Positions 12,011 to 62,899 of a stretch of 64,000 nucleotides of DNA are shown here, piece by piece. Position numbers and translations under genes: made by a program. Under the pieces are notes generated by a model. It saw only the letters and a program-made list of their open reading frames with translations, did no database searches and was not told the origin of the DNA. The DNA is taken from NCBI GenBank assembly GCA_976551045.1, contig CDPCPM010000275.1, forward strand, positions 4,960,001 through 5,024,000, in the 5' to 3' direction. Within the stretch, counting starts at the first letter, position 1; every line of letters begins with the position of its first letter. This DNA comes from Glaucostegus cemiculus (lineage: Eukaryota).

Positions 12011-12757
12011 TTCTATATTCAGAAAGATACAGACATGATAAATGTCTTCCAAGTTCCATCAGATTACCACAATCAGTGGTTTCATATATTTGAAGAAATA
12101 CGTGCAGGTGACAGTTGAGTTACTCAAATGATAAGCAGAATCTCCTGTACATTTTTGTTAAGTTTCTGAAGCATTTCAACACAGTTAAAGGCAGCTTAAG
12201 TAACAAACATGTTTAGTGCACACATAAATGATGCGACTAACTTCTATCACTTTGCTTGACTTTATTCGGTTATCGGATCTATTTTTTGAAAGACTAGTAG
12301 GTTGCAAGATAGTAGCAACCAAGTGAGACACTCCTGCTTCCACGCGATGAATCAATGATCACCAGCCAGCAAAACACACCAGAACACACTGAACAACAGT
12401 GCCAGGATGACCATAGCCTACCAAGAAGTAGCATCAAATGGTTGACTGACAGCTTTCCTAGGGTTTGCTGGAGAATGTTCAGGGAGAAACTTTGGGAAGC
12501 CACAAGCCTCAGGTGCTGAAGTTGCAATGACAGGGAGGAGCAATTGTTGGCAGGGGATGGAGAGACTGTATACCACTGTTTGATGACTTCTGCCTTGGGT
12601 ACAAAAGATTGTGCATTGTGTATTTTAATGCTGGTTTTGTCCTTAGTTCTCCGGTCAAAACATCTGCTCTATGGACAACAGGTTAATTATTAGACCAATT
12701 GGGCCCACTGTGAGGCTGAAGTGGGATTGGCAGTAGGATACAAATAAATGAAAATCA

Positions 12758-13160
12758 GTAAGTGCAGATGCTGGAAATCTGAAATAAAAATGGAAAATGC
12801 TTAATGTACTCAATGGGTCAGGCATCACATGTAGAAAGAGAAAAGGTTAATGGTTCAAGACCAAGACTCTTTGCCAGAACTGGGAAAGAGAAAAGTTAAA
12901 TTTTAGTCGAAGCGTAACTGGGGAGGAACCAGTAGAACTAAAGGAATATCTCTGATAGGGCAAGACCAAATGAGCTAATGCAGTAGTTAAAATCAGATTA
13001 TGCTTCCTGGTTACATGTTGCTGAAAGTAAATTTCTTGGATATGCCCAGCAAGCCAGATTATACTAATAAAAAGAAAAACTGAGCCAAATGATGACAGGC
13101 AGAATGGGCAGTTCTGATACAGACAGAAAAAAGTGTTGCCTCAAGTTAGAGATTCAGTAT
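12758..13160 (-). mobile_element. PLE 3' UTR and pLTR
   Basis: tgcagatgctggaaatctgaaataaaaatggaaaatgct... pLTR with decayed hammerhead at ~12845-12882. Confidence 0.7.
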
Positions 13161-13407
13161 CAATGAAAGGACTCAAGGATTGAGTACCATCTTGAATACT
13201 CCTTCTCAGTTTTGAGAGGTCTAGGGTCAGGATTTCTCATAAGTCAGAGGGGTTGTTATCCTTGGAGCTTTTCCTTTGTCTGCTTCATAATCCCTGGCAA
13301 TGATGGAGCTTGGAGTAGCATGCTTGCTTTGGGGGTCTGGCTTTGGCCACGGAATTTGTTTATGGTAACTAACTGAGTGTAATTAAAGCCTCAGTGATGG
13401 GTACATT
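13161..13407 (-). mobile_element. RTE LINE 3' fragment (continuation of 14730-15749)
   Basis: Reverse complement aligns to 24510-24740; junction hexamer TACATT matches 15744-15749. Confidence 0.75.
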
Positions 13408-14465
13408 CTGACTAACACACCTCAACCAGCGAGGATAGGCAGCAACACCTCCAGCATGATTAATCTCAATACTGGTGCCCCACAAGGCTGCGTCCTCAGC
13501 CCTCTACTCTGCTCCCTTTATACTCATTACCACGTGACCAGATTCTGCTCTAACTCCATCTATGTAAGTTTGCAGACGATATCACCATTGTAGGCTGTAT
13601 CTCAAATAACGATGTGTCGGAGTACAGGAAGATGATAGAGAGCTTAGTGACATGGTGTCACGACAACAACCTTTCCTTCAATGTCAGCAAAACAAAAGAG
13701 CTGGTCATCAACTTCAGGAAGGGGGCAGTGCATATGCTCCTGTCTACATCAACGATGCTAAAGTCAAGAGGGTTGACAGCTGCAAGTTCCCAGGAGTGAA
13801 CATCACCAATAGCCTGTAGTGGTCAAACCACTTAGACACCACAGCCAAGAAAGCTTACCAGTGCCTCTGCTTCTTCAGGAGGCAAAAGAAATTTGCCATG
13901 CCACCATTGACCCTCACCAATTTTTGTTGATGCACCATAGAAAGCATCCTATCTGGATGCATCATGGCTCGGTATGGCAACTGCTCTGCCCATGACTGCA
14001 AGAAATTGCAGAGAATTGTGGACACAGCTCAGCACATCATGGAAGCCAGCCACCCCACCTTGGACTCTGTCTATACTTTTCACTGCCTCAGTAAAGCGGT
14101 CAACATAGTCAAAGACCCCACCCTCCCTAGGCATTCTTTCTTCTCCCCTCTCTCATCAGGCAGAAAGTCTGAAAGCATGTACCATTAGGCTCAAGGACAG
14201 CTTCTATCCCGCTATTACAAGAATATTGAAATGGTTCCCTAGTACGATAATATGGACACTTGACCTCACAATTTCCCTCATTATGGTTTTGCACCTTATT
14301 ATCTACCTGCACTGCACTTTCTCAGTAGCTGCTACACTTTATTCACATTCTGTTATTATTTTACTTTGTACTGCTTTGAATGCACTGTGAATTGAATTGA
14401 TCTGTATGAACGGTATGCAAGATGAGTTTTTCACGGTACATATGACAATCATAAACCAATGCCAA
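13408..14465 (+). mobile_element. Rex1/Babar LINE 3' half (copy R1)
   Basis: [49 protein letters not shown]-type motif; tail tgacaatcataaaccaatgccaa. Confidence 0.92.
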
Positions 14466-14729
14466 TTCTACCTGTGTGGAATTTCCACATTCTCCTTGTG
14501 ACTGTGTGGATATTCTGTTTTTCCTCCCACAGCCCAAGGACCTACTGGTAAGTTAATTAGCTACTGTAAATTGCCCTTGGTTTCTGTGGGTAGCAGTTGT
14601 TGATGAGCACATGAGAGAGAATAGTTACTGGGAAATAAATAGGGAAAAGGGACGGATCAGAATACATTGAGACCTCACATAAACTCGAGGTGCTAAATGA
14701 CCTCAGTGTCATATAAGGTAATATGAAAA
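14466..14729 (+). mobile_element. headless SINE body (head lies inverted at 17690-17734)
   Basis: Begins mid-element at tctacctgtgtggaatttccacattctccttgtgac, alignable with the SINE at 7130 onward. Confidence 0.8.
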
Positions 14730-15749
14730 ATAATTAGCACATGTTAAAAAGTGTCTTGACTTCTCTATTACAATACACTAAGACTGCCTAAGACTGCTTT
14801 GATGAGAATGACCAGGAGATCAAAGAGCTATATGAAGTCCTTGAATTCAAAACTCCACTACATCTCACAAAGAAAGTAACAGGTTTGCAGACATTTGAAA
14901 GCCTTCTTCCAAAAGAAAATCTGTAATCTAAAGAACACATGAAAAGAATCAAGGAGATCCAGAAAATGGCTGATAACAATGATATAGGTCAATTGTTTAG
15001 CAGTGTGATAAATGCCTATTGTCCAAGTACCCACAACTTGCTCTATTGAGAGTCAAGAACAGAGGAAAGCTTATCAAAGAGAGATACCATTATGGAACAC
15101 TTCAAATAATTCCTCAACCATAACTCTGTTCTCAACATGAGTGTCTTTGATTCCACCCCACAGAAAATTATCTTGTCAGTCTATGATGGCAGTGAGCAAT
15201 AAGTTCAATGTCAACTAAAAAAAAGACCTCAGGAGCAAACTTCCAACGGTTCTAAAACTTCATGGAGATGAACTTCAGTCACAAATTTGCAGCCTCATTT
15301 CCCACATCTGGGAAGATTAAGATATTCCCAGGCACCATAATTGTGACCCCCTTAAAGAAAAGAGACAAATCCAATTGTAGCAGCTGGATTGGTGTTAACC
15401 TACAGAACAAATGGAAACCAACCTATATCACTTTCATTCCAGAACCTAGGTCTCTCCAACCTCACTCTCTGTGCTGCAGTATGCAGACAGCTCTTAGATA
15501 TGCATGCATTCACACACCGAACTTCAAGTGACTCACTGAAGTGTATGAAAGAATGGGCCTTACACTAATTATCCTCAATACATAGGCCCTCCACCAACCT
15601 GTTGAGCTGTACAAGCACCTCATGACAATAAAGATCTTTGATAACACCCTGGAAAACATGGAACAACTTTGCATATCTCAAACTTAGAACAAAAATAGAC
15701 ATGGATGGTGAAACTCACAAATGTCAGTGACCTTGCCCAGGCTAATGTA
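14730..15749 (+). mobile_element. RTE LINE linker and internally deleted RT
   Basis: DCFDENDQEIKEL, KKRDKSNCS joined directly to YRTNGN, LQYADS (YADD-like), TLENMEQL. Confidence 0.8.
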
Positions 15750-16706
15750 TTGGTATTGGTTTATTATTGTCAGTTGTACTGAGGTATAGTGAAAAACATG
15801 TCTTGTATACTGTTTGTACAGATCAATTCATTACAAAGTGCATTGAGGTAGTACAGGGCAAAAACAATAACGGAGTACAGAGTAAAGTGTCACAGCTACA
15901 GGGAAGTGCATTGCAGGTAGACAATAAGGTGCAAGGTTATAACAAGGTAGGTTGTGAGGTCAAGAGTCCATCTCATTGTATAAGAGAAGCGTTCAATAGT
16001 CTTATCACAGTGGGATAGAAGCTGTCCTTGAACCTGGTGGTATGTGCCCTCAGGCTCCTGTATCTTCTGTCTGGTGGGAGAGGGGAGAAGAGAGAATGAC
16101 CCGGGTGGGTGGGGTCTTTGTCTATACCTCTCACTGCCTTGGTGAAGCATCCAGCATAATCAGAGTCCAAGGAGGGGAGGTTGGTTTCCATTATGTACTG
16201 GGCTGTGTCCACAACCCTCTGCAGTTTCTTATGGTCCCAGGCAGAGCAGTTGCCATACCAAGCCGTGATGCTTCCAGATAGGATGCTTTCTATAGAGCAT
16301 CGATAAAAGTTGGTGAGTGTCAAAGGGAACATGCCAAATTCCTTTAGCCTCCTGAGGAATTAGAGGTGCTGGTGAGCTTTCTTGGCTGTGGTGTTTATGT
16401 GGTTGGATGAAGACAGGCTATTGGTGATGTTCTCTCCAAGGAATTTGAAGCTCTCCACCTCAGCACCATTGATGTAGACAGGTGCACGTACGCCACCCCC
16501 TTTCCTGAAGTCAATGACCAGCTCTTTTGTGGTCTGTTGGTCAGGAAGTCAAGGATCCAGTTGCAGAGGGAGGTGTTGAGTCTCAGGTCTAGGAGTTTGG
16601 TGATGAGGTTGCTTGGAATTATGGTATTGAAGGAGGAGCTGTAATCAATAATAGCCTAATGTAGATGTCTTTACTGTCCAGGTGCTCCAGAGATGAGTGT
16701 AGGGCC
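15750..16706 (-). mobile_element. Rex1/Babar LINE 3' half (copy R2)
   Basis: ORF 15973..16332 LTNFYRCSIESILSGSITAWYGNCS...TTRFKDSFYP; tail (ccaata)n at 15750. Confidence 0.92.
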
Positions 16707-17689
16707 ATTGAGAACAAAGTTGGTGAACTAAGGGCAAGACTAATCTACCAAAGAGAACTAAGGGACTGCTGTGTGCTATGTCTCACCAAAAGCTGGCTTA
16801 CACCTACTTCACCTGACTGCACCATGCAACCTGAGGGCTTCTCAATTCACCGGATGGACCATACAGCATCCTTGGGCAAAGTCAGAGACAGAGGTGTCTG
16901 TTTCTTAATTAACACCTTGTTGTGTTCAGACATGATGGTCCTGGCAAGTTCTTGCTTACCCAGCTCAGAAATATCTAACAGTGAAATGCCGCCCATACTA
17001 TCTGTCATGGGAGTTCACTTCAGCTATCCTAATGGCAGTCTATATCCCACCCCAGGCAGAAGTCTTTCTGTCTTTGTGTCTCTCATTGTTTTTTTTAATG
17101 TGACTAGCACCTTGATCTGTGGAGTACAGTATTTTGCTGCTATGCATGCTGAATGTATATGTGGAAGTGACAATAAAACTGATACTGATTCTGATTCTGA
17201 AGTGAATCCTGCACTTAATAAACTATACTCTATGGTCAACAGCTTTTAAATGGGATACCCTGAGGTCCTCTTCCTCATTGCTGGTGACTTCAATCAGGCC
17301 AACTTCAAGAGCATGTTACCAAAATACTACTACCATGTGTCCTGTCCCACCAAGGGCCCCAAACACCCTTGACTATTGCTATACAACCATCAAAGACGCC
17401 TAATGAGCCACCCCCCGCCCATACTTTGATAAATCAGACTACCAGGCTGTACTCCTTCTCCCCACATACAAACAGAAACTGAAACGGGAGGACCCACTAC
17501 AGAAAATCATATAGTGCTGGTCTGAGGAAATAGATGATCTTCTATGTGACTGCTTTGAGTTGGTAGACTGGTCCGTGTTCGAAGACTTAGCTGCCAGCCA
17601 AGATGAGTACATCACCACCATCACAGACTTTATCAGCAAGTGTGTTGAGGACTGTGTACCAAAGAGAACAATTGGAGTGTTCCCAAACC
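16703..17689 (+). mobile_element. Rex1/Babar AP-endonuclease segment, inverted relative to R2
   Basis: IENKVGELRARL...CCVLCLTKSWL, IAGDFNQANF, LDYCYTTIKDA, FDKSDY (GKSDH-like). Confidence 0.88.
17064..17198 (+). mobile_element. 135 bp LINE 3' UTR with (TTCTGA)n tail nested in the Rex1 endonuclease
   Basis: Ends gtgacaataaaactgatactgattctgattct; flanked by GAAGT (17059-17063, 17199-17203). Confidence 0.8.
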
Positions 17690-17734
17690 AACCAAGGTGA
17701 GGATCAAACCTGGGTCACTGGAGCTGAGTGGCAG
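17690..17734 (-). mobile_element. SINE head fragment (B-box region)
   Basis: Minus strand ctgccactcagctccagtgacccaggtttgatcctcaccttggt. Confidence 0.75.
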
Positions 17735-18300
17735 TTATGGTGGACTTCAGGCCATCCAGGCACTGTGGACACTCTACAGTTCACTTGATTTGAGGTCATT
17801 AGTTTGTCTGTGAGGGACTCTGAGAAGAGCTACCTTAGTGGAGTTTTTGACGTTTTCAACGTTGATTCTCTTGCAGCAGCAGCATTTGTGTTGCCACTGT
17901 TGTTTTGGAGCCAAGCTGATAACAAGAGCAGTATATCGGGGAGAGGTCAGTCCAAAAGTCATTGGAACTGGGTGATGTAGATATCCTTGCCATCTGTCGC
18001 TCGATGATGACATACTTTCACAGAATTCGGATGTTGCCTTCAAACAGAATATTAATAATGACAAGCTAATGTTCCAAGCATTTTGTCTAAGGGAGGATTC
18101 CATTAGATTTAGCTTTCCTTACTCCTTCCTTGTTGGTCACGCCTTGCCAGATTGTTTCATCCTTTCCAGGTCTGACACTGAAGATGCCCAAGAGGATCAT
18201 ACCAGGGGTTTTCCAAGATTGCAGCAAAAATCCTTCTTGGCTATAACCATGTCTTTCAGGATGAGGGTTTAAGGACTGATAACCATAGAGCACTAATTTA
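17735..18300 (-). mobile_element. RTE LINE AP-endonuclease fragment
   Basis: Minus strand MILLGIFSVRPGKDETIWQGVTNKEGVRKAKSNGILP*TKCLEH*LVIINILF resembles LLGDFNARVG...GVGKxNSNG...LVITNTLF. Confidence 0.8.
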
Positions 18301-18344
18301 ATGTTACAGTGACCTCCTTGCATTGGTGCTAGAGATACAGAGAA

Positions 18345-19725
18345 CAATTAAGTAAAATGTAAATAGCAAAAGGGTAGTACACAGAGAAGTGTGATCCATT
18401 AAAATCAAAAATGGAAACTTGCACAAGAATGCTGAGGGCCCTGTTAAACTACTTTGCATCCGTTTTCACCAGGAAAGGTGGTTCTTCAAAAGTAATAGCA
18501 TAAAGGGGATGGCTGAGACATAAGAATTTGTAAAAATTATTAACACATTGGCTTTAGAAAAGGTGGCTGAACTTTAAGTAGCAAGTCACCGGGATTGATG
18601 GGACGCATCTGACATTTTGAGGGAAGTATATGAATAAATCATGGGGTCACTGACTGTGATCTTTCAGTGTTCTTTGGATTTGGAGGAAGTGCAAGGGAAC
18701 TGGAGGTAGCAAATGTTATTCTGTAGTGCAAGGGAATGAGGATAAACCTGGCAACTACAGGCCAGTTAGTTTAATCTCAGTAGTAGAAAACATTTTAAAA
18801 ACATTGATGCAGGACAGGAATAATAGTCAATTAGAGGCAAGACAGGATGGCTTGGTTTAGGCAAATTGTGTTTGATCATTTTAATCAAGTCTTTTGATGA
18901 GTTAACGGATAGAGTTGATGAGAGTAATGCAGTCTCATGTGTACGTGGACTTCCAGAAGGGTTTTGATAAGGTGCCACAATAAAGTTGAAGGACATGGCA
19001 TAAAAGGACACTGATTACATGGATACAAAATTAGCTAAGTAACAGACAACAGACTTGTGGTGAGTGGTTGATTTTTTTCAACTGCTGGAAGGTGAACACT
19101 TGCGTTTCCCACAGGCTGGTGTTAGGGCTCTTGCTTTTCTTGATCTACATTAATGACCTAGATTTGCGGGTGCAAGTCACAAGTTCTAAATTTTGCAAAT
19201 GACATAAAACTTGGCAATGTGAACTGTCAAAGAAGATAGTGATAGCTAGAAACAGACAGCTGAAGAAGCATTCACAAGGCAGATGAAGTTTAATGTGGAG
19301 AAATAAAGAAAACTGTTCTCAAAGGAATACAGAATGCAGCGACCCAAGATTGTATGTGCACAAATCATTGAAAGTAGCAGAGCAGGTTGAAAAAGTGGTA
19401 AATAGGACATTCGCATTTCTGACATTAGAGGTATAGAGTATAAAAGCAGGGCAGTGATATGGAACTGTTATAAAACACAGGTCTGGCAACAACTGCATAA
19501 CGTGTTTACTTTTGGTTATAACATTATGGGAAGAATGTGAAGAAGATGCAGGAAAGATATATTCGACAATGATTCTTGTGATGACATATAAGGATAGATG
19601 AGAGATGCTGAGGCTGATTTTTTGAGATGGCTGTGGGGAGACCTGATAGAAATGTTTAAAGTGATAATGTGTCCGGGCAGAGTGGTTAGTGACAGGCTAT
19701 TCCTTTTGGTGGAGTGCTCATGATC
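18345..19725 (+). mobile_element. old, heavily decayed CR1 ORF2
   Basis: gataaacctggcaactacaggccagttagtttaa (DKPGNYRPVSL), gacttccagaagggttttgataaggtgcca (DFQKxFDKVP). Confidence 0.8.
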
Positions 19726-22959: not shown

Positions 22960-23690
22960 AGAAGTTGAACAGCTCTTCCTGTAGATTAATCAACTCAAAT
23001 GAAAAGCTAGTTGGAATTGATGAGCAGTATTGCAGTGAGGAAGTTTGAGATGAGGGTTGGAGCAATGACATATCCTAGCTGGACTCCAGTCTGCACTTGA
23101 TTGAATTTGTGCTGAATTATTTGGTTAGGACCATGGCTTGCATGTTATCATGTAGCGTGATAGAATTGCAGTGTATTTCTGGGGATAGTCAAACGTTGGA
23201 GTCAAAGGCTTTTGTAAGTTTGAGAAAGGCCATGAACATGGTTAGTGCTGCTCTCTACATTGGTCATGTGGTGAAGAGCATGTCCATTGTGCCTCTTGAT
23301 GGGACAAATCTGCATTAAGAGTTTGGGATAAAACTCTTCCCCCACTGGAAGAAAGTGGTTGAGAACAATGCATACAATGACATTACGAATGGCAAAAATC
23401 AGGGAGACTTGCCTGTAATTACATCAGTAGAACAAATCTCCTTTGTTGAAGATGGTCATGATTAAAGCAGCTCTTTAGATTTCAGATGAGAGAGATAAGG
23501 TCATGAATTTGCATCAGAAGTCCTTCTCTACAATGTTTTAGTACTTCAGCTGTGACTTTTCCTGCTCTGGAAGCTTTGTTGTTTTTCAACTTTTAGATTA
23601 CTTTTTCAACTGCCTGTAAGCTGGGTTAGTACCAGGACTGTATGCTAAAAGATGGAGTCAAAGATAGATTCTCAATTCAGGACACCTTTC
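22960..23690 (-). mobile_element. RTE LINE RT remnant
   Basis: Minus strand LKNNKASRAGKVTAEVLK, CRFVPSRGTMDMLFT, MAFLKLTKAFDS. Confidence 0.8.
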
Positions 23691-23699
23691 AAATGTACC

Positions 23700-24895
23700 T
23701 TCTAGCAAGCACTGACTGCCAGACTGTCCTTCGTAAGCCCTTATCCAACTTCTATGGTTCTAAAACTTTGTGGAATGGAACTTGAATCACAAATTCACAG
23801 CCTCATCTCCCACATCAGGGAAAAGGAAGATATTCCAGGGAACCTGAGACACACTGTAATTGTGACCATCTTCAAGAAAAGAGACAAGCCCAGTTGTAGC
23901 AACTGGAATGGAGATAATTGACAGAACAAATGGAAACCAATCCATATCACCTTCATTCCAGAACCAAGGTCTCTCTAACTTCACTCTCTGTACTGCAGTA
24001 TGCAGACAGCTCTTGAACATACACATGTTCAGACACTGAACTTCAAGCCATTGTTGACTCATTCACTGAAGTGTAAAAGAGAATGGTCTTTATACTAAAT
24101 ATCTGCAAAACATAGGTCCTCCACCAACCTACTGAGCTGCACAAACACCTCATGACAATGAAGATACACTCTGGAAAACATGGAACAATTTCACACATCT
24201 CAGGAGACACCTTTTAACAAAAACAGACATGGATGATGTAATTCATCATGGCCTTCAGTGTAGGGGCAGAGAATTTGACCATCAACAAAAAAAAAAGGTT
24301 TTGAAGATCAAGGCATCAAACCCAGGACAAAGTTCATGATTAATCAGTTGGTGTTAATCTCACCTTCCTGGATGATTCTGTGCTTATGACAAACTGCAGC
24401 AGGCACCTTTAAGCACCAGAAAGGTAACACCGACACTGTCTCTAAAAAAAAATCTTTCAAATCTAATTGCAGAACAAATGAACCAATGTTAGTGACCTTG
24501 CCCACGCTAATGCCTCTTTAGTTACACTACGTCAGTTCCCATGAGCAAATTTCATGGCCAAAGCCAGATCTCCAAAACAAACATACTACTCCAACCTCCA
24601 TCATTGCAAAAGATTACCAAACAGACAGAGGAAATGATCCAAGGATAACAACCCCTCTGACTTCTGAGAAATCCTGACCCAAGATTTCTCAAAACCGAGT
24701 ATTCAAGATGATACTTGATCCTTGGGTCCTTTCACCGATACTGAATCGCTAACTTTAGGGAACACTTTTTTCCTGTCTGTACCAGAAGTGCCTATTTCTG
24801 CCTGTTATTATTTGGGCTTAGTTTTTCTCTTTCTATTAGTATAATCTGGCCTGCTGGGCATATCCAACAACTTTCCTTTCAGCAACACAGAACAA
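23700..24895 (+). mobile_element. internally deleted RTE fused to PLE-like 3' sequence (paralog of 14730-15749 plus 13010-13407)
   Basis: Directly alignable with 15240-15747 and with the reverse complement of 13010-13395. Confidence 0.85.
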
Positions 24896-25127
24896 ATAAG
24901 TAATTTCACAAGTTTGCACTTCTGGCCTGTATTAGTATATATCATAAGTTAAGACCCCAGCTGGCCACTTCAGTTCATAGTTGGAAACTTAAGTCTGAGT
25001 TTCTTAAATATTCTTCCACAAAATCAAAGTCAGTAAATTTTTGAAGGCCTCAGTCAACACAACGCAAAATATTACAATATCTGTATCCAAACGCTTTCCT
25101 TCAATTTTTTAAGAAAATAACTGCCGT

Positions 25128-26696: not shown

Positions 26697-28070
26697 GCAA
26701 AGGGCTGCAGATGCTAGAATCTAGGTGAAAAACAGGATGATGCTGGAGGAACTCAAGAGGCCAGGCAACATCCATAGAGAAAAGCAAGCAGTCAACGTTT
26801 CAGGTCAGGACCTTTCTTCAGAACTGAAGATAGGAAAAAGGGGAAGCCCAGTATATAGGAGGGAAAAGTAGAGCAGTGATAAGTGGACGAAAGGTGGGAG
26901 GCAGGGTGGGCATAAGGTGGTGATAGGTAGATGCAGTTAAGAGATAGTGATAGGCAGGTGCGGGGTAGGAGACAGCAGATACACCGGAGGATGTGTCAAA
27001 GGTAAGGAGGAAAAAGGTGGGTAGAAAAAAAGAGAAAGGCTAGGAAAGAAGAGTCATGGTTGGGGGTGGGGGTGGGGGAGGAGCTGTGTGGGGATTACTT
27101 AAAGTGGAAGAATTCGATGTTCATGCCGTAAGGCTGCAAGGTTCCAAGACGGAAAATGAGGTGCTATTCCTCCAGTTTGCGCTTGGAATTCTCCTGGCAG
27201 TGGAGGAGGCCGAGGACTGACATATCTATGGTAGTGTGGAAGGGGGAGTTGGAGTGACTGCTCAGGGATATGCAGATCACAGTTACAGACAGAGCGCAGG
27301 TGTTCTGCGAAACGATCACCTAGTCTGCGTTTGGTCTCACCAATGTAGAGGAGACCACACATGGAGCACCAAATACAGTAGATGATATTAAGGGAGGTGC
27401 AGGTGAACCACTGTCTCAGCTGAAAGGACTGTTTGGGTCCCTGGATGGAGGTGATGTAGGGGCAGGTGTTGCATCTATGTCAGGGACAGTTTCCGGGGTG
27501 AGAGCGGGATGGGTGTGGTGGGGGGGTAGGAGGAGTAAGCTAGGGAGTCGCAAACTAGGGAGTTGCGGAGAGAGTGGTTCCTGCAAAAGGCAGAAAGGGG
27601 TGGGGAGGGGAATTTCTTGGTGTTGGGGTCCTGTTGTGAAGTGGTGAAGAATGATTTGTTGGATACGTGGCCTGGTAAATGAAATGTGAGGACAAGGGGG
27701 ACCCTATCCCTGCTGAGTCTGGGAAGGGTGGAGGTGAGGGCAGAGGTACAAGAAATGGCAGAGATACAGGAAATGGCAGAGATACAGGTGTGAGCTCTCT
27801 CGACTACAGTAGGGGGGAAGCCACAGTTGGTAAATAAGCTGGACATCTCAGATGTCCTGGAGTAGAAAGCCTCATCATGGGAGCAGATGCAGCGGAGGCA
27901 GAGAAAACGAGGAAAAGGTCCTTGCAAGAGACAGGGTGGGAGGAGCTGTAATCAAAGTAGCTGTGGGCATCAGTGGGTTTGCAGATGTTGGTGGATAAGG
28001 AATCTCCTGAGATGGAGATGGAAAGATTGAGGAAGGAGAAAGGTGTCAGAGATAGTCCAGGTGAATTAAA
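26697..28070 (-). mobile_element. PLE, 5'-truncated: RT C-terminus, GIY-YIG endonuclease, UTR and pLTR
   Basis: KPTDAHSYFDYSSSHPVSCKD, RDRVPLVLTFH, CGLLYIGETKRRLGDRFAEHLRSV; frameshifted; small tandem duplication at ~27752-27788. Confidence 0.93.
26789..26826 (-). ncRNA. minimal type-I hammerhead ribozyme motif
   Basis: Minus strand CAGUU CUGAAGA A AGGU-CCUG-ACCU GAAAC GUU GACUG: CUGANGA and GAAA cores, helix II, palindromic AACGUU helix III, helix I CAGUU/GACUG. Confidence 0.8.
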
Positions 28071-45147: not shown

Positions 45148-45258
45148 TAATTCTTTTGCATTTGCTTATGCCCAATATAAATTTTTTTCTATCTTAGTTT
45201 GGAAGGGACATTAACTAAGGTAATCTTTTCCTTATAACATAACAACATAATAACTATA

Positions 45259-46558
45259 TCACTTAGAGAAGAAGGACTCATACTGCCGACTGCTATTCAT
45301 CGACTTCAGCTCCGCTTTCAATACCATCATCCCGCAACAGCTAATCAGGAAGTTGAGCGCTCTGGGCATTAACTCTCCTCTCTGCAACTGGATACTGGAT
45401 TTTCTAACTTGCAGGCCGCAGTCAGTCAAAATTGGTGAAAACACCTCAAGCACCATCACACTGAGCACTGGCTCCCCACAGGGTTGTGTGCTCAGTCCGC
45501 TCCTGTTCACCTTGTTGACTCACGACTGTGAGGCCAGATCCAGCTCCAACTGCATTGTTAAATTTGCCGATGACACGACAGTGGTGGGTCTTGTCACGAA
45601 TGACGATGAGTCGGACTACAAAGAGGAGGTGAAACAACTAGCCGTGTGGTGCCATGACAACAACCTCTCCTTGAATGTGGATAAAACCAAGGAGATGATA
45701 GTGGATTTTAGGAGGGGTCACCGTGTGCACATCCCGCTGACCATCAACGGGTCTGCTGTGGAACAAGTACGCAGCACCAAGTTCCTGGGGGTGCACATCA
45801 CCGATGACCTGACCTGGTCCACTAACATTACGACCCTCACGAAGAAAGCTCAGAAACGCCTCTACTTCCTGTGGAGACTGAGGAAAGCGTACCCCCATCC
45901 CTCCGTCATGAAAACCTTCTATAGGGGGACCATTGAGAGCATCCTAACTCAATGTATCACTGTTTGGTTTGGAAGCTGCTCAGCTGAAGTCCCTCCAGAA
46001 GATAGTTAGGGCTGTGGAGTGGATCATAGGTGTCTCGCTTCCATCCCTCGCAGACATATACAAAGACCGTTGTGTGAGGAAGACCAAGAGCATAATGGCC
46101 GACCCTTCTCACCCCTCCCACCACCTCTTCACAATTTTGCCATCAGGGAGGAGGCTTAAATGTATCAGGGCAAGAACGACCAGGCTGAACAATAGCTTCT
46201 TTCCGCAAGCCATCAGAACTGCAAACTCTCTCATCCCTCCATCTTCCTTTGTTAACACTAAGAGATGCTAGGTGCACAGAAATGCACCAGCACTTTAAAT
46301 GCCCGACACCAGCCCGTTCACTTTAATAACTATTTATTTATTTACTGGCCATTTTTAATTTCATCTGCGTACTAATTTAATTTTAACTTCCGTAGCTTTT
46401 AATGTCTAATGTTTTGTAATGTTTATTCTGTCAAGTGTGTATGTGTCTCTCTGTTGGTTGTTATGTTATTTTATGGGAAGAGCACCTGAGGAGGACGGTA
46501 TCTCGCTCCTATGCATACTATGTATGTATATGGTTGTGACAATAAAAACTGATTCTGA
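45259..46558 (+). mobile_element. young Rex1/Babar LINE, 5'-truncated
   Basis: Open frame from [23 protein letters not shown] through [14 protein letters not shown] and [10 protein letters not shown] to 46009; one frameshift near 45986; tail gtgacaataaaaactgattctga. Confidence 0.95.
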
Positions 46559-60735: not shown

Positions 60736-61208
60736 CAGAATCAGAATCAATTTATTGTCACTTTCACGTATACATGAAGGCGAGATATCGTTTCTCTACA
60801 GGCCAATGTGCAAAAGACATCAAAGACAACAAACATCAAAACATTAACAGCCCCCAGCCTCACCCCGCACCGACGACAACCTCCAACCCCCGCAGTCCCA
60901 CAACCTCAGGGCCCACAGTCCATCAACAACCTCCGGCCCGCAGTCCGACAGTCCGACCACCTCCGGCCCCGCAGTCCGACCACGACCACCTCCAGCTCCT
61001 TCGCCTCCGGCCTCGCAGTCCGACCACCTCCGGCTCCTTCGCCTCCAGCTCTGCAGTCCGATGACCTCCAGCCCCGAATTCCGGCTCCGCAGTCCGACGA
61101 CCTCCAGCCCCGAATTCCGGCTCCGCAGTCCGACGACCTCCAGCCCCGAATTCCGGCTCCGCAGTCCGACGACCTCCAGCCCCGCAGACCGGCTCCGCAG
61201 TCCGACGT
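60736..61208 (-). mobile_element. GC-rich VNTR joined to a (TTCTGA)n LINE tail
   Basis: Tail cagaatcagaatcaatttattgtcac at left, CpG-rich tandem repeats at right. Confidence 0.75.
61053..61207. repeat. 36-bp minisatellite, ~4.3 copies
   Basis: Unit gcagtccgacgacctccagccccgaattccggctcc; shorter degenerate subunits from ~60885. Confidence 0.97.
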
Positions 61209-62899
61209 GTTTAACCAGTGGCTAAAGAGGTTTCTTTTATTTTTCTGTCTTATCCAAAGCAGTCATAATTTTGTACAGCTCTATCAAATCTCCCCTCAAT
61301 CTCCTTCCCAAGTTCTTCACCCCCATCCTTGTACTTAAAAATTATTCATCCCTGGAACCATTCTGGTAGATCATTTCTGCATCTTCTCAAAGACCTTCAC
61401 GTACTTTCTTAAAGTGTAGAAACCAGAACAAGAGACTGATCTAACTCGTATGTTTAAAGTTTAGTGTAACTTATCTGTTTTTGAACTAAATACCTCTACA
61501 AAGCCCATATACTTTGCTAACTATTCTCTCAGTACACATTGTTACTTTTAAAGATTGTGCACATTAATCTCCAATTCCCTCTGTTCCTGCACACTGTTTA
61601 GACCTATTCCATTAAGTCCAAAATCCACCTTGACATAATCCAATTTCTTCCCTTCATCAGCTATTTTGGTAGTTCATCAAACAATTCAATTGGTTAGCAA
61701 AACAAAATCTGCCTTTTACAGATGCATGCTGGCTCTCCTCAATGAACTCTAACTTGGTCAAGAACATATTAATTTTTTTTCTTTGATTATTGTTTCTACA
61801 ACCTTCAAGCAACAGCAATATTAGAATAACTCATGATGAATGAGAACAAAGATAAAGGCACTTCCACCAAGTTTGAAAATTCCTTATTAAAACATCAAAA
61901 GTTTAAATCAAGAGAAATAATGCACAAAATATAAATTAGATTTCACTGATATAAAAAAATCAGCAAGGACTACAACGCTAACATCTGTGTTTCACTGACA
62001 GCTAACAATGACTGGATTGCCACATTTAACTGTACATGTGCAGACTCTAGGCAGGTGGTGGGATGCTGATAAAATTCGTCTTCGTTCATTAGCATTTGAC
62101 ATGTTCAAGAGTATCAGCCCACCATTCTACTCGCCACAAAATACTTGGTTCCATTGACTTCATAAGTGAGTACAATATGCTGCTGATACTTTGCCATCTA
62201 TTTAGCATTAGTGGACAAAGACCACTCTCCCCTCTTCTCCCCTGAAGTTATCAGAATTTCTCTATTACAATGAGCACTGGTAAGCCTACAGATTGATTAT
62301 AATTCCACATCCCCACCCCCAATGAATCATAATTGAAAGTGGTTCACAACATAACATTCTTCCCACACTGAGAAGCAGGTGGTACACATTGGTTGTTTAC
62401 TGCTCGATCAATTGATCGAGTAAGTATCCTTTGTCCCTTCCTTTTAAGGAAGCTTTCATCCCTTTGCAGATCCTTCTCTTTCTCCTTATTCTCCTTCCCC
62501 CCCTTTTCATTTTTGTTTGATACTTCCAACATTTCTGCTGTTACACTTCCATCTCCTCCTTATCACTTTTCCCTTCTTTCTCCCCTTCCACTCATCGCCA
62601 TACTGTTTGAGAATTGCATGCAGACTTTTGGAGCTTTCCGAGCCAAAGAAAAGCAGATGTCAACACTCATGTTTGCTATGCAATATAATTTTATTACAGG
62701 CAATTCTATCTCACTATGTAAAATACTATCTAACCACTTACACTGTACACAACAATTTCATAAAGAAATTAGTGTGCTTAATTATTGCCAGGTATCCAGA
62801 TGTCCTTCTTCAATATATACACTACTCTGCAATATCCTGTAGTTTGCCACTGTCAAAACAAAAATTACCCTTCTGATCTACTTAAAATCTTTCCTTCCA

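Follow-up and report, generated by a model that had tools for sequence, protein, structure and literature searches.

Inversion of a spacer between two head-to-head Rex1-type elements in Glaucostegus cemiculus and a probably RNA-edited copy from the same locus

Described inversions and retrocopies compared with this locus

The closest described class of event is retrotransposon recombination-mediated inversion (RRMI), for which Lee et al. 2008 (PMC2603318) report deletions at 12 of 49 human-chimp inversions. As in RRMI, the two breakpoints of the locus studied here lie in inverted copies of a single family, the products are chimeric, the size is in the kilobase range and part of one element is deleted. 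Unlike the L1 and Alu cases of that study in primates, it involves Rex1-type LINEs in Glaucostegus cemiculus. Polarity is read here from elements nested in one another, from subfamily markers and from a paralogue with an empty site, whereas RRMI was polarised with outgroup genomes. For a second set, TE-mediated inversions, Balachandran et al. 2022 (PMC9675761) give complex breakpoints in 4/7 Alu and 0/8 L1 cases, read as MMBIR or replication slippage. Small inversions, moderately similar inverted repeats and deletions (38–251 bp there) are common to those cases and ours. In contrast to them, the pair found here consists of LINEs, with one junction in register and the other carrying a deletion.

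Synchronous L1 insertions, as portrayed in a preprint (bioRxiv 10.1101/2024.08.27.596794), also show split TSDs. They are coeval, whereas the two Rex1-type insertions of this locus, X and Y, differ in subfamily and apparent age. Y resembles L1 twin priming as outlined in the same preprint: its 5' part is inverted, an internal stretch is missing and the inner junction shows micro-complementarity.

A copy of part of the locus on another contig, C12, has parallels of its own. L1-made ADAR-edited retrocopies were described in cultured human cells (3/235 pseudogene insertions, inverted Alus; PMC11702581). The C12 copy shares with them clustered T>C changes that keep to the repeat portion, of a retro-inserted RNA there and of a putative one here. 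Unlike them, it stands fixed in an assembled genome, about 12% diverged from its source, and it would stem from inverted LINEs in non-exonic RNA, the partner arm having since been lost. It is also similar to LINE chimeras (bioRxiv 10.1101/2025.02.02.635956), in which a cellular RNA copy precedes the 3' end of a truncated LINE. Those chimeras are of L1, and the searched text of that preprint mentions neither editing, ADAR nor CR1; the C12 copy has a CR1-type end and may be a chimera or the result of a later insertion. Among titles and starts of abstracts of openly accessible papers, none had germline-fixed ADAR-edited retrocopies as its subject.

Split markers around the inverted spacer

The window analysed is a stretch of 64,000 nucleotides, and all positions refer to it. 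A Pfam scan of 29 of the 39 long frames revealed no host exon or gene, only retroelement domains. The Rex1-type homologue at 45254–46009 carries RVT_1 and PF09004, which identifies it as a non-LTR RT element. Rex1, RTE, CR1 and the SINE type are the labels which we take to apply to these elements.

The spacer between the two head-to-head Rex1-type copies R1 and R2 is inverted: comparison with the RTE, the SINE and paralogue P revealed that it is reversed relative to the ancestral state. The arms of the two copies (13692–14466 against 16530–15749) are inverted and 76% identical, with a longest identical run of 21 bp.

An earlier sequence-only reading had proposed that three markers are split by this block, and each of them was recovered. 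One TSD is divided between two elements, with TACATT at 13402–13407 and AATGTA at 15744–15749. The former is the left copy of the duplication of insertion X and reads AATGTA on the RTE sense (minus) strand. Its firm core is only 4–5 bp, since on the R2 side two of its six bases may be part of the Rex1 tail repeat and the C12 copy has GACGTT at this place.

The SINE has its head on the minus strand outside the inversion (17690–17734) and its body and tail on the plus strand (14466–14733, terminal ATAA at 14730–14733). Of 19 genomic SINE copies, 11 join the head (17734→17691) directly to the body from 14466, with a weak head match (E 0.1–0.4) in three of the 11.

A single RTE-type LINE lies in three pieces: A, the 5' part (minus, 18312→17735); B, inverted (plus, 14730–15749, with the right TSD copy at its end); and C, the 3' part outside the inversion (minus, 13161–13407). 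The pieces are joined in intact copies elsewhere. By our reading of the table of 47 RTE loci, A is followed by B on one strand in 17 and B by C in six. RTE copy L014 runs without a gap across the end of B and the start of C and contains the hexamer once. The SINE's ATAA duplication, which had been put forward as a candidate TSD, has its second copy in TTAT at 17735–17738: in locus L064 the matches to A and B overlap by just the four bases ATAA, and L065, L051 and L022 have ATAA once. When 14466–15749 is flipped, the TSD, SINE and RTE markers fall back into line. Two further loci, L018 and L066, show pieces in other orders and are likely separate copies.

Paralogue P (23747–24900, plus strand) is an older duplicate of RTE pieces B and C and the next repeat. 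It is without insertion X and retains the ancestral order. Its empty site (24482–24887) joins 15717–15747(+) to 13388→13016(−) with only a local deletion of about 10 bp, and compared with P, piece B lacks 237 bp at 15717. That P is a mere sibling RTE was rejected, as it has the same junction between RTE and next repeat at 78–90% identity. Other RTE copies match at about 67–86%, in short patches only. Divergence amounts to 14.5% between P and the window, 14.1% between P and the C12 copy and 11.9% between the window and the C12 copy. Thus, P would have split first.

Chimeric elements and the site of exchange

The sequence-only reading had suggested looking for a switch of diagnostic markers within R1 and R2. 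Such a switch was found at about 13642–13719 (plus strand), a probable exchange interval of 77 bp which is approximate by a few bases and in which R1 and R2 agree over 17 consecutive bases (13692–13709). The 5' part of R1 (13408–13642, plus), the 5'-truncated start of X, has the S2 state at 10/10 diagnostic sites in +24..+235. The 3' part of R1 (13719–14465, plus) corresponds to the 3' half and tail of Y and is S1a at 7/7 scored sites from +312. In R2 the 3' part (15750–16530, minus), X from +283 to the tail, is S2 with 0/7 S1a middle markers. The segment R2a (16531–16707, minus; Y about −167..+18) is of S1a type with both S1a alleles (−46T, 0C).

An all-S2 5' part was found in 0/24 family copies with an S1a-like middle, and the −46T/0C pair in 13/23 S1a-middle versus 0/50 S2-middle copies. 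Best matches (S1:S2) were 15:8 for R2a and 4:19 for the R1 5' part (p=0.002). The marker sets were picked post hoc from the copies that also served as the test. Upstream of +290 the subfamilies differ at just 13/290 majority positions. In this region a leave-one-out analysis gave an S2-like score for 4/13 S1a copies, S1b copies reach −8.6 versus −9.6 for R1, and the R2a call depends on two to three sites. There is no run of rare alleles shared by R1 and R2, and hence no conversion tract that would mark the exchange site.

These sequence comparisons support the view that R1 and R2 are reciprocal chimeras and not the original insertions. Since the exchange would lie inside the two elements, the flipped block should extend over about 13690–16530 and not 14466–15749. 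Ectopic recombination between R1 and R2, as proposed before, is therefore upheld by the marker switch; the proposed inverted spacer of about 1.3 kb gives way to one of about 2.8 kb. The splitting of RTE, SINE and TSD over the flipped block, together with the reciprocal chimeras, makes it likely that this inversion of some 2.8 kb arose by recombination between two inverted Rex1-type copies, which were likely inserted at different times.

R2 is more than a simple Rex1 copy: a 5' inverted segment of Y (16703–17689, plus) of the twin-priming type is attached, its −879 end lying at the SINE head. At the inner junction the segments overlap by five bases (GGCCA, 16703–16707) and about 700 bp of the element are absent between them; at the outer junction, examined for a TSD and primer complementarity, at most one to two bases are in common. 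The inverted segment is broken at about 17062–17200 by another repeat. R2 further contains a 42-bp micro-inversion (16120–16161, plus) whose ends form an imperfect inverted repeat of 8 bp (6/8).

At 16527–16533 (minus) element positions +19..+282 are missing from R2 at a 4-base microhomology, ACAA. With these 264 bp gone, the junction in R2 departs from what a clean reciprocal exchange would leave. The loss ends at +283, inside the exchange interval, and inversion and deletion may therefore be one event. We put this coupling at about even odds. The deletion end may fall there by chance, the interval making up 77 bp of about 1 kb. The recombination reading also covers a two-step variant, in which the crossover at +235..+312 was clean and reciprocal and R2 lost the 264 bp independently afterwards. 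This variant predicts the same marker switch, and the 237-bp loss at 15717 and the 42-bp micro-inversion testify to independent lesions at the locus. The place of the deletion end and the company of deletions in 12/49 such primate inversions (PMC2603318) speak against it, and we give it clearly less than an even chance.

Private changes in the 3' parts amount to 31/583 (5.3%) for X versus 58/601 (9.7%) for Y (p=0.006). Elsewhere the load is 7.6% in the R1 5' part, 4.2% in R2a and 7.9% in the inverted segment, and over whole elements all-X versus all-Y gives p=0.057. The load alone fails to locate the switch, and an exchange in the short tail repeats fits it about as well. Such an exchange would flip exactly 14466–15749 and leave R1 and R2 as whole insertions whose mixed markers pre-date insertion; the equally even loads within R1 (7.6/9.7%) and R2 (5.3/4.2/7.9%) and the S2-like 5' part of S1b copies agree with this. 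However, two natural mosaics of a kind seen in 0/24 and 0/50 copies would have to lie side by side, and an X of 9–10% age would pre-date P, yet P is without X. Furthermore, R1 and the C12 copy have only two derived bases in common. We regard a tail exchange as improbable.

Split TSDs alone would not tell recombination from two synchronous insertions with second strands completed in trans, by which the spacer would be inverted at insertion as with L1 in tumours. Split TSDs plus a twin-priming element are the hallmarks stated in the preprint on such events (bioRxiv 10.1101/2024.08.27.596794), and both tails point to the spacer. But the 3' parts of X and Y differ in subfamily (S2 versus S1a) and load, and the edited copy described below requires an intact inverted partner after insertion, which renders synchronous insertion very unlikely. 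An assembly flip at the inverted repeats is hardly credible. In its favour, contigs of the related organisms B, C and E, with unique flanks at about 93–95%, stop 20–35 letters into the Rex1 edges, and none of the contigs of four runs on 12200–18400 crosses a Rex1 copy (organism A is near-identical there, at low depth), but R1 and R2 at 76% identity, with identical runs of 21 and 17 bp within a 5.36-Mb contig, would offer little for a long-read mis-join.

The copy on C12 and the proposed history

The stretch 12199–13697 (minus) is duplicated on another contig (G000:C12:23155138-23156622, L047:138-1622) in a copy which matches at 84% over 1508 columns and adjoins a 523-bp CR1-type 3' end. The Rex1 part of the copy shows T>C at 24/61 sites, A>G at 2/83 in the same segment, and T>C at 20/323 in the remaining copy. 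T>C occurred at 16/24 sites with a 5' U/A versus 8/37 with a 5' C/G (p=0.001). ADAR enzymes favour a 5' U or A and avoid a 5' G. Seen from the edited strand, this is an A>G cluster on one strand, confined to the pairable segment and with the neighbour bias, and it likely results from ADAR-like RNA editing.

The changes cover +29..+264, entirely within the +19..+282 now absent from R2. R2 is the only inverted partner found in 114 kb, and no further minus-strand copy of this segment turned up there. The C12 copy would likely preserve the state of the X/Y pair prior to this partial loss. Among 145 family copies no similar editing was detected, the highest values for a 290-bp window being 16% T>C and 15% A>G, nor was any other edited copy present among the 29 nearest matches to the edited piece. 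The C12 copy has no TSD of at least 6 bp around it, and a CR1 tail is present. The CR1 part differs by 5.2% from the 11 copies closest to it, which accords with an age of about 6% for the C12 copy.

We infer that the RTE came first and that the SINE then entered it with the ATAA duplication. The older Rex1 element Y (S1a) would next have entered the SINE via twin priming, followed by the duplication that produced P. The younger X (S2) would then have inserted into the RTE at a distance of 1.3 kb from Y, pointing the other way. A minus-strand transcript spanning both elements may have folded back, been A-to-I hyper-edited and been partly retrotransposed to C12. Later, X and Y would have exchanged near element +283. 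The in-register left junction suggests a homology-guided event; at the right junction, the loss of Y +19..+282 at the microhomology would fit template switching or one-ended repair better than a clean crossover. On a tentative reading that falls somewhat short of an even chance, CR1 RT captured hyper-edited germline RNA that had been made across a newly formed inverted LINE pair, the pair was later rearranged in one inversion-plus-deletion step, and the retrocopy is a dated fossil of the lost duplex.

The inversion belongs to an ordinary, known class of event which is unusually well recorded here, and no effect on a gene is apparent. The case is valuable because all its steps can be put in order from a single genome. 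With it, inversion between paired LINEs, including an asymmetric junction with a deletion and twin priming, is now described for a Rex1-type family of non-mammals. More unusual is the edited copy on C12, whose inherited A-to-G scars would stem from non-exonic RNA and point back to a partner arm since deleted. It suggests a route to finding vanished double-stranded RNA structures and dating rearrangements. If the fossil-duplex reading is true, edited retrocopies can order structural changes without an outgroup.

Split markers and ancestral order

Contig C275, which carries the window, comprises 5.36 Mb of a 2.85 Gb genome, and the window consists for the most part of old non-LTR repeats, whose families we take to be Rex1, RTE, CR1 and SINE. 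These repeat types point to a probable cartilaginous fish. Two inverted Rex1-type copies, R1 (13408-14465, plus strand; element position +1 = 13408) and R2 (15750 to about 17689), flank the block under study. A homologue of R1 contained RVT_1 and PF09004 in a Pfam scan. A minus-strand frame at 27099-27951, related to a piece at L049:3125-3636, matched GIY-YIG weakly (E 0.0012, below the cut-off) and is perhaps a Penelope-like remnant.

The sequence-only reading had proposed that 14466-15749 was inverted between R1 and R2, splitting a target site duplication (TSD), a SINE and an RTE. All three split markers are present. In the RTE paralogue P (23747-24900) piece B (14730-15749, plus strand in the window) is joined to piece C (13161-13407, minus strand) without Rex1 in between. 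Of 47 RTE loci, by our own reading of the locus table, 17 have piece A (17735-18312, minus strand) continuing on the same strand into B, and six have B continuing into C. ATAA occurs once in intact RTE copies and twice in the window. The SINE head (17690-17734, minus strand) and body (14466-14733, plus strand) are continuous in 11 of 19 SINE copies. Paralogue P and the order in the RTE and SINE copies indicate that the block is inverted relative to its ancestral state. P itself, 8 kb away, is a local duplication in inverted orientation, and its start is joined to a different RTE copy (22974-23720) in opposite sense. Four RTE copies (L005, L006, L026, L052) carry internal inversions of their own, which suggests that this family is frequently subject to 5' inversion.

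Site of exchange and lesions in R2

R1 and R2 are 76% alike. Five queries collected 145 Rex1-type copies in all; those that could be typed fall into two 3'-end types, S1 (n = 35, including 13 S1a copies) and S2 (n = 61). R1 carries the S2 allele at 10/10 sites up to +235 and is S1a from +312; R2 has S1a alleles at -46 and 0 and is S2 from +283. Thus, the switch of diagnostic markers proposed as a check on the inversion was found in both copies. The all-S2 5' part of R1 occurs in 0/24 family copies with an S1a-like middle. Both alleles of R2a (16531-16707, minus strand) were found in 0/50 copies with an S2-like middle versus 13/23 with an S1a-like middle. Best matches (S1:S2) were 15:8 for R2a versus 4:19 for the R1 5' part (p = 0.002). 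Marker switch and nearest matches suggest that the original insertion in the RTE (X, subfamily S2) would comprise R1 5' and R2 3', that in the SINE (Y, S1a) R2 5' and R1 3', and that about 13690-16530 was flipped. The inversion is confirmed, but by these markers it is larger than the 1.3 kb first proposed. Against this placement count the choice of markers on the same copies on which they were tested and a leave-one-out analysis, in which 4/13 S1a copies look S2-like. An exchange in the element tails rather than within R1 and R2 fits the private-change load about equally well.

R2 lacks +19 to +282, with the ends joined at ACAA. The deletion end falls within the exchange interval, next to a 17-bp run identical in R1 and R2. 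Inversion and deletion can both be explained by a single event that left one junction in register and the other at a microhomology, or by two separate events. It is established that pairs of inverted retrotransposons can give rise to inversions whose ends are chimeric elements; 12/49 such inversions carry deletions (PMC2603318), and small TE inversions with deleted junctions are interpreted as products of replication-based repair (PMC9675761). In Y the 5' segment (16703-17689) is inverted; its inner junction shows a 5-base overlap and some 700 bp of the element are absent, the pattern of twin priming as described in bioRxiv 10.1101/2024.08.27.596794. This segment contains an inserted short repeat of about 140 bp (17062-17200), with other copies at 46436-46558 and on C12, another contig of the same genome. 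A 42-bp micro-inversion in R2 (16120-16161), between imperfect 8-bp inverted repeats, is a template-switch pattern.

A probable edited copy on C12

Window 12199-13697, including the RTE/R1 junction, is matched by C12:23155138-23156622 (L047:138-1622). In the Rex1 part this copy reads C at 24/61 majority-T sites and G at 2/83 A sites; outside it, T>C was found at 20/323. On a minus-strand RNA these T>C changes are A>G, at 16/24 sites after U or A versus 8/37 after C or G. No other edited copy was found, as none of the 145 family copies exceeded 16% T>C in any 290-bp interval, and the 29 nearest matches each share at most four of the changes. The edits (+29 to +264) lie inside the segment deleted from R2, of which no further minus-strand copy was found within 114 kb. 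The C12 sequence is likely an ADAR-edited retrocopy; edited retrocopies made up 3/235 L1-made insertions in cultured cells (PMC11702581). In the simplest reading, X would have folded against a still-intact Y in a minus-strand RNA, followed by A>G editing, which would make the copy older than the loss in R2. Alternatively, its source RNA may have paired in trans with Rex1 RNA.

The copy adjoins a 523-bp CR1-type 3' end (L046:8615-9137), itself 5.2% from the nearest CR1 copies. This junction may reflect chimeric reverse transcription or a later insertion; no flanking TSD of 6 bp or more was found. One A-rich motif is common to the edited copy 5' end (+290; L047:1622, window 13697), the R2 deletion end (+283) and the exchange interval, and could be a shared microhomology or nick-prone site. 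A repeat with a GC-rich 36-bp tandem array (60741-61223) recurs on C12 (L047:4083-4800), 2.5 kb from the edited copy.

Order of events

Divergence is 14.5% between P and the window, 14.1% between P and the C12 copy and 11.9% between window and C12 copy. X is absent from P and present in the C12 copy. Together with the private-change loads, this suggests that the events would have followed the order RTE, SINE, Y, P, X, C12 copy, deletion. Synchronous insertion of X and Y is argued against by this order and by the private changes in their 3' parts (5.3% in X, 9.7% in Y), although for the whole elements the difference in load reaches only p = 0.057. Contigs from three other organisms contain the flanks and Rex1 edges, with breaks inside repeats; consequently, both insertions are old. 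The inversion is real and of a known kind, and the record of its prior state is uncommon.
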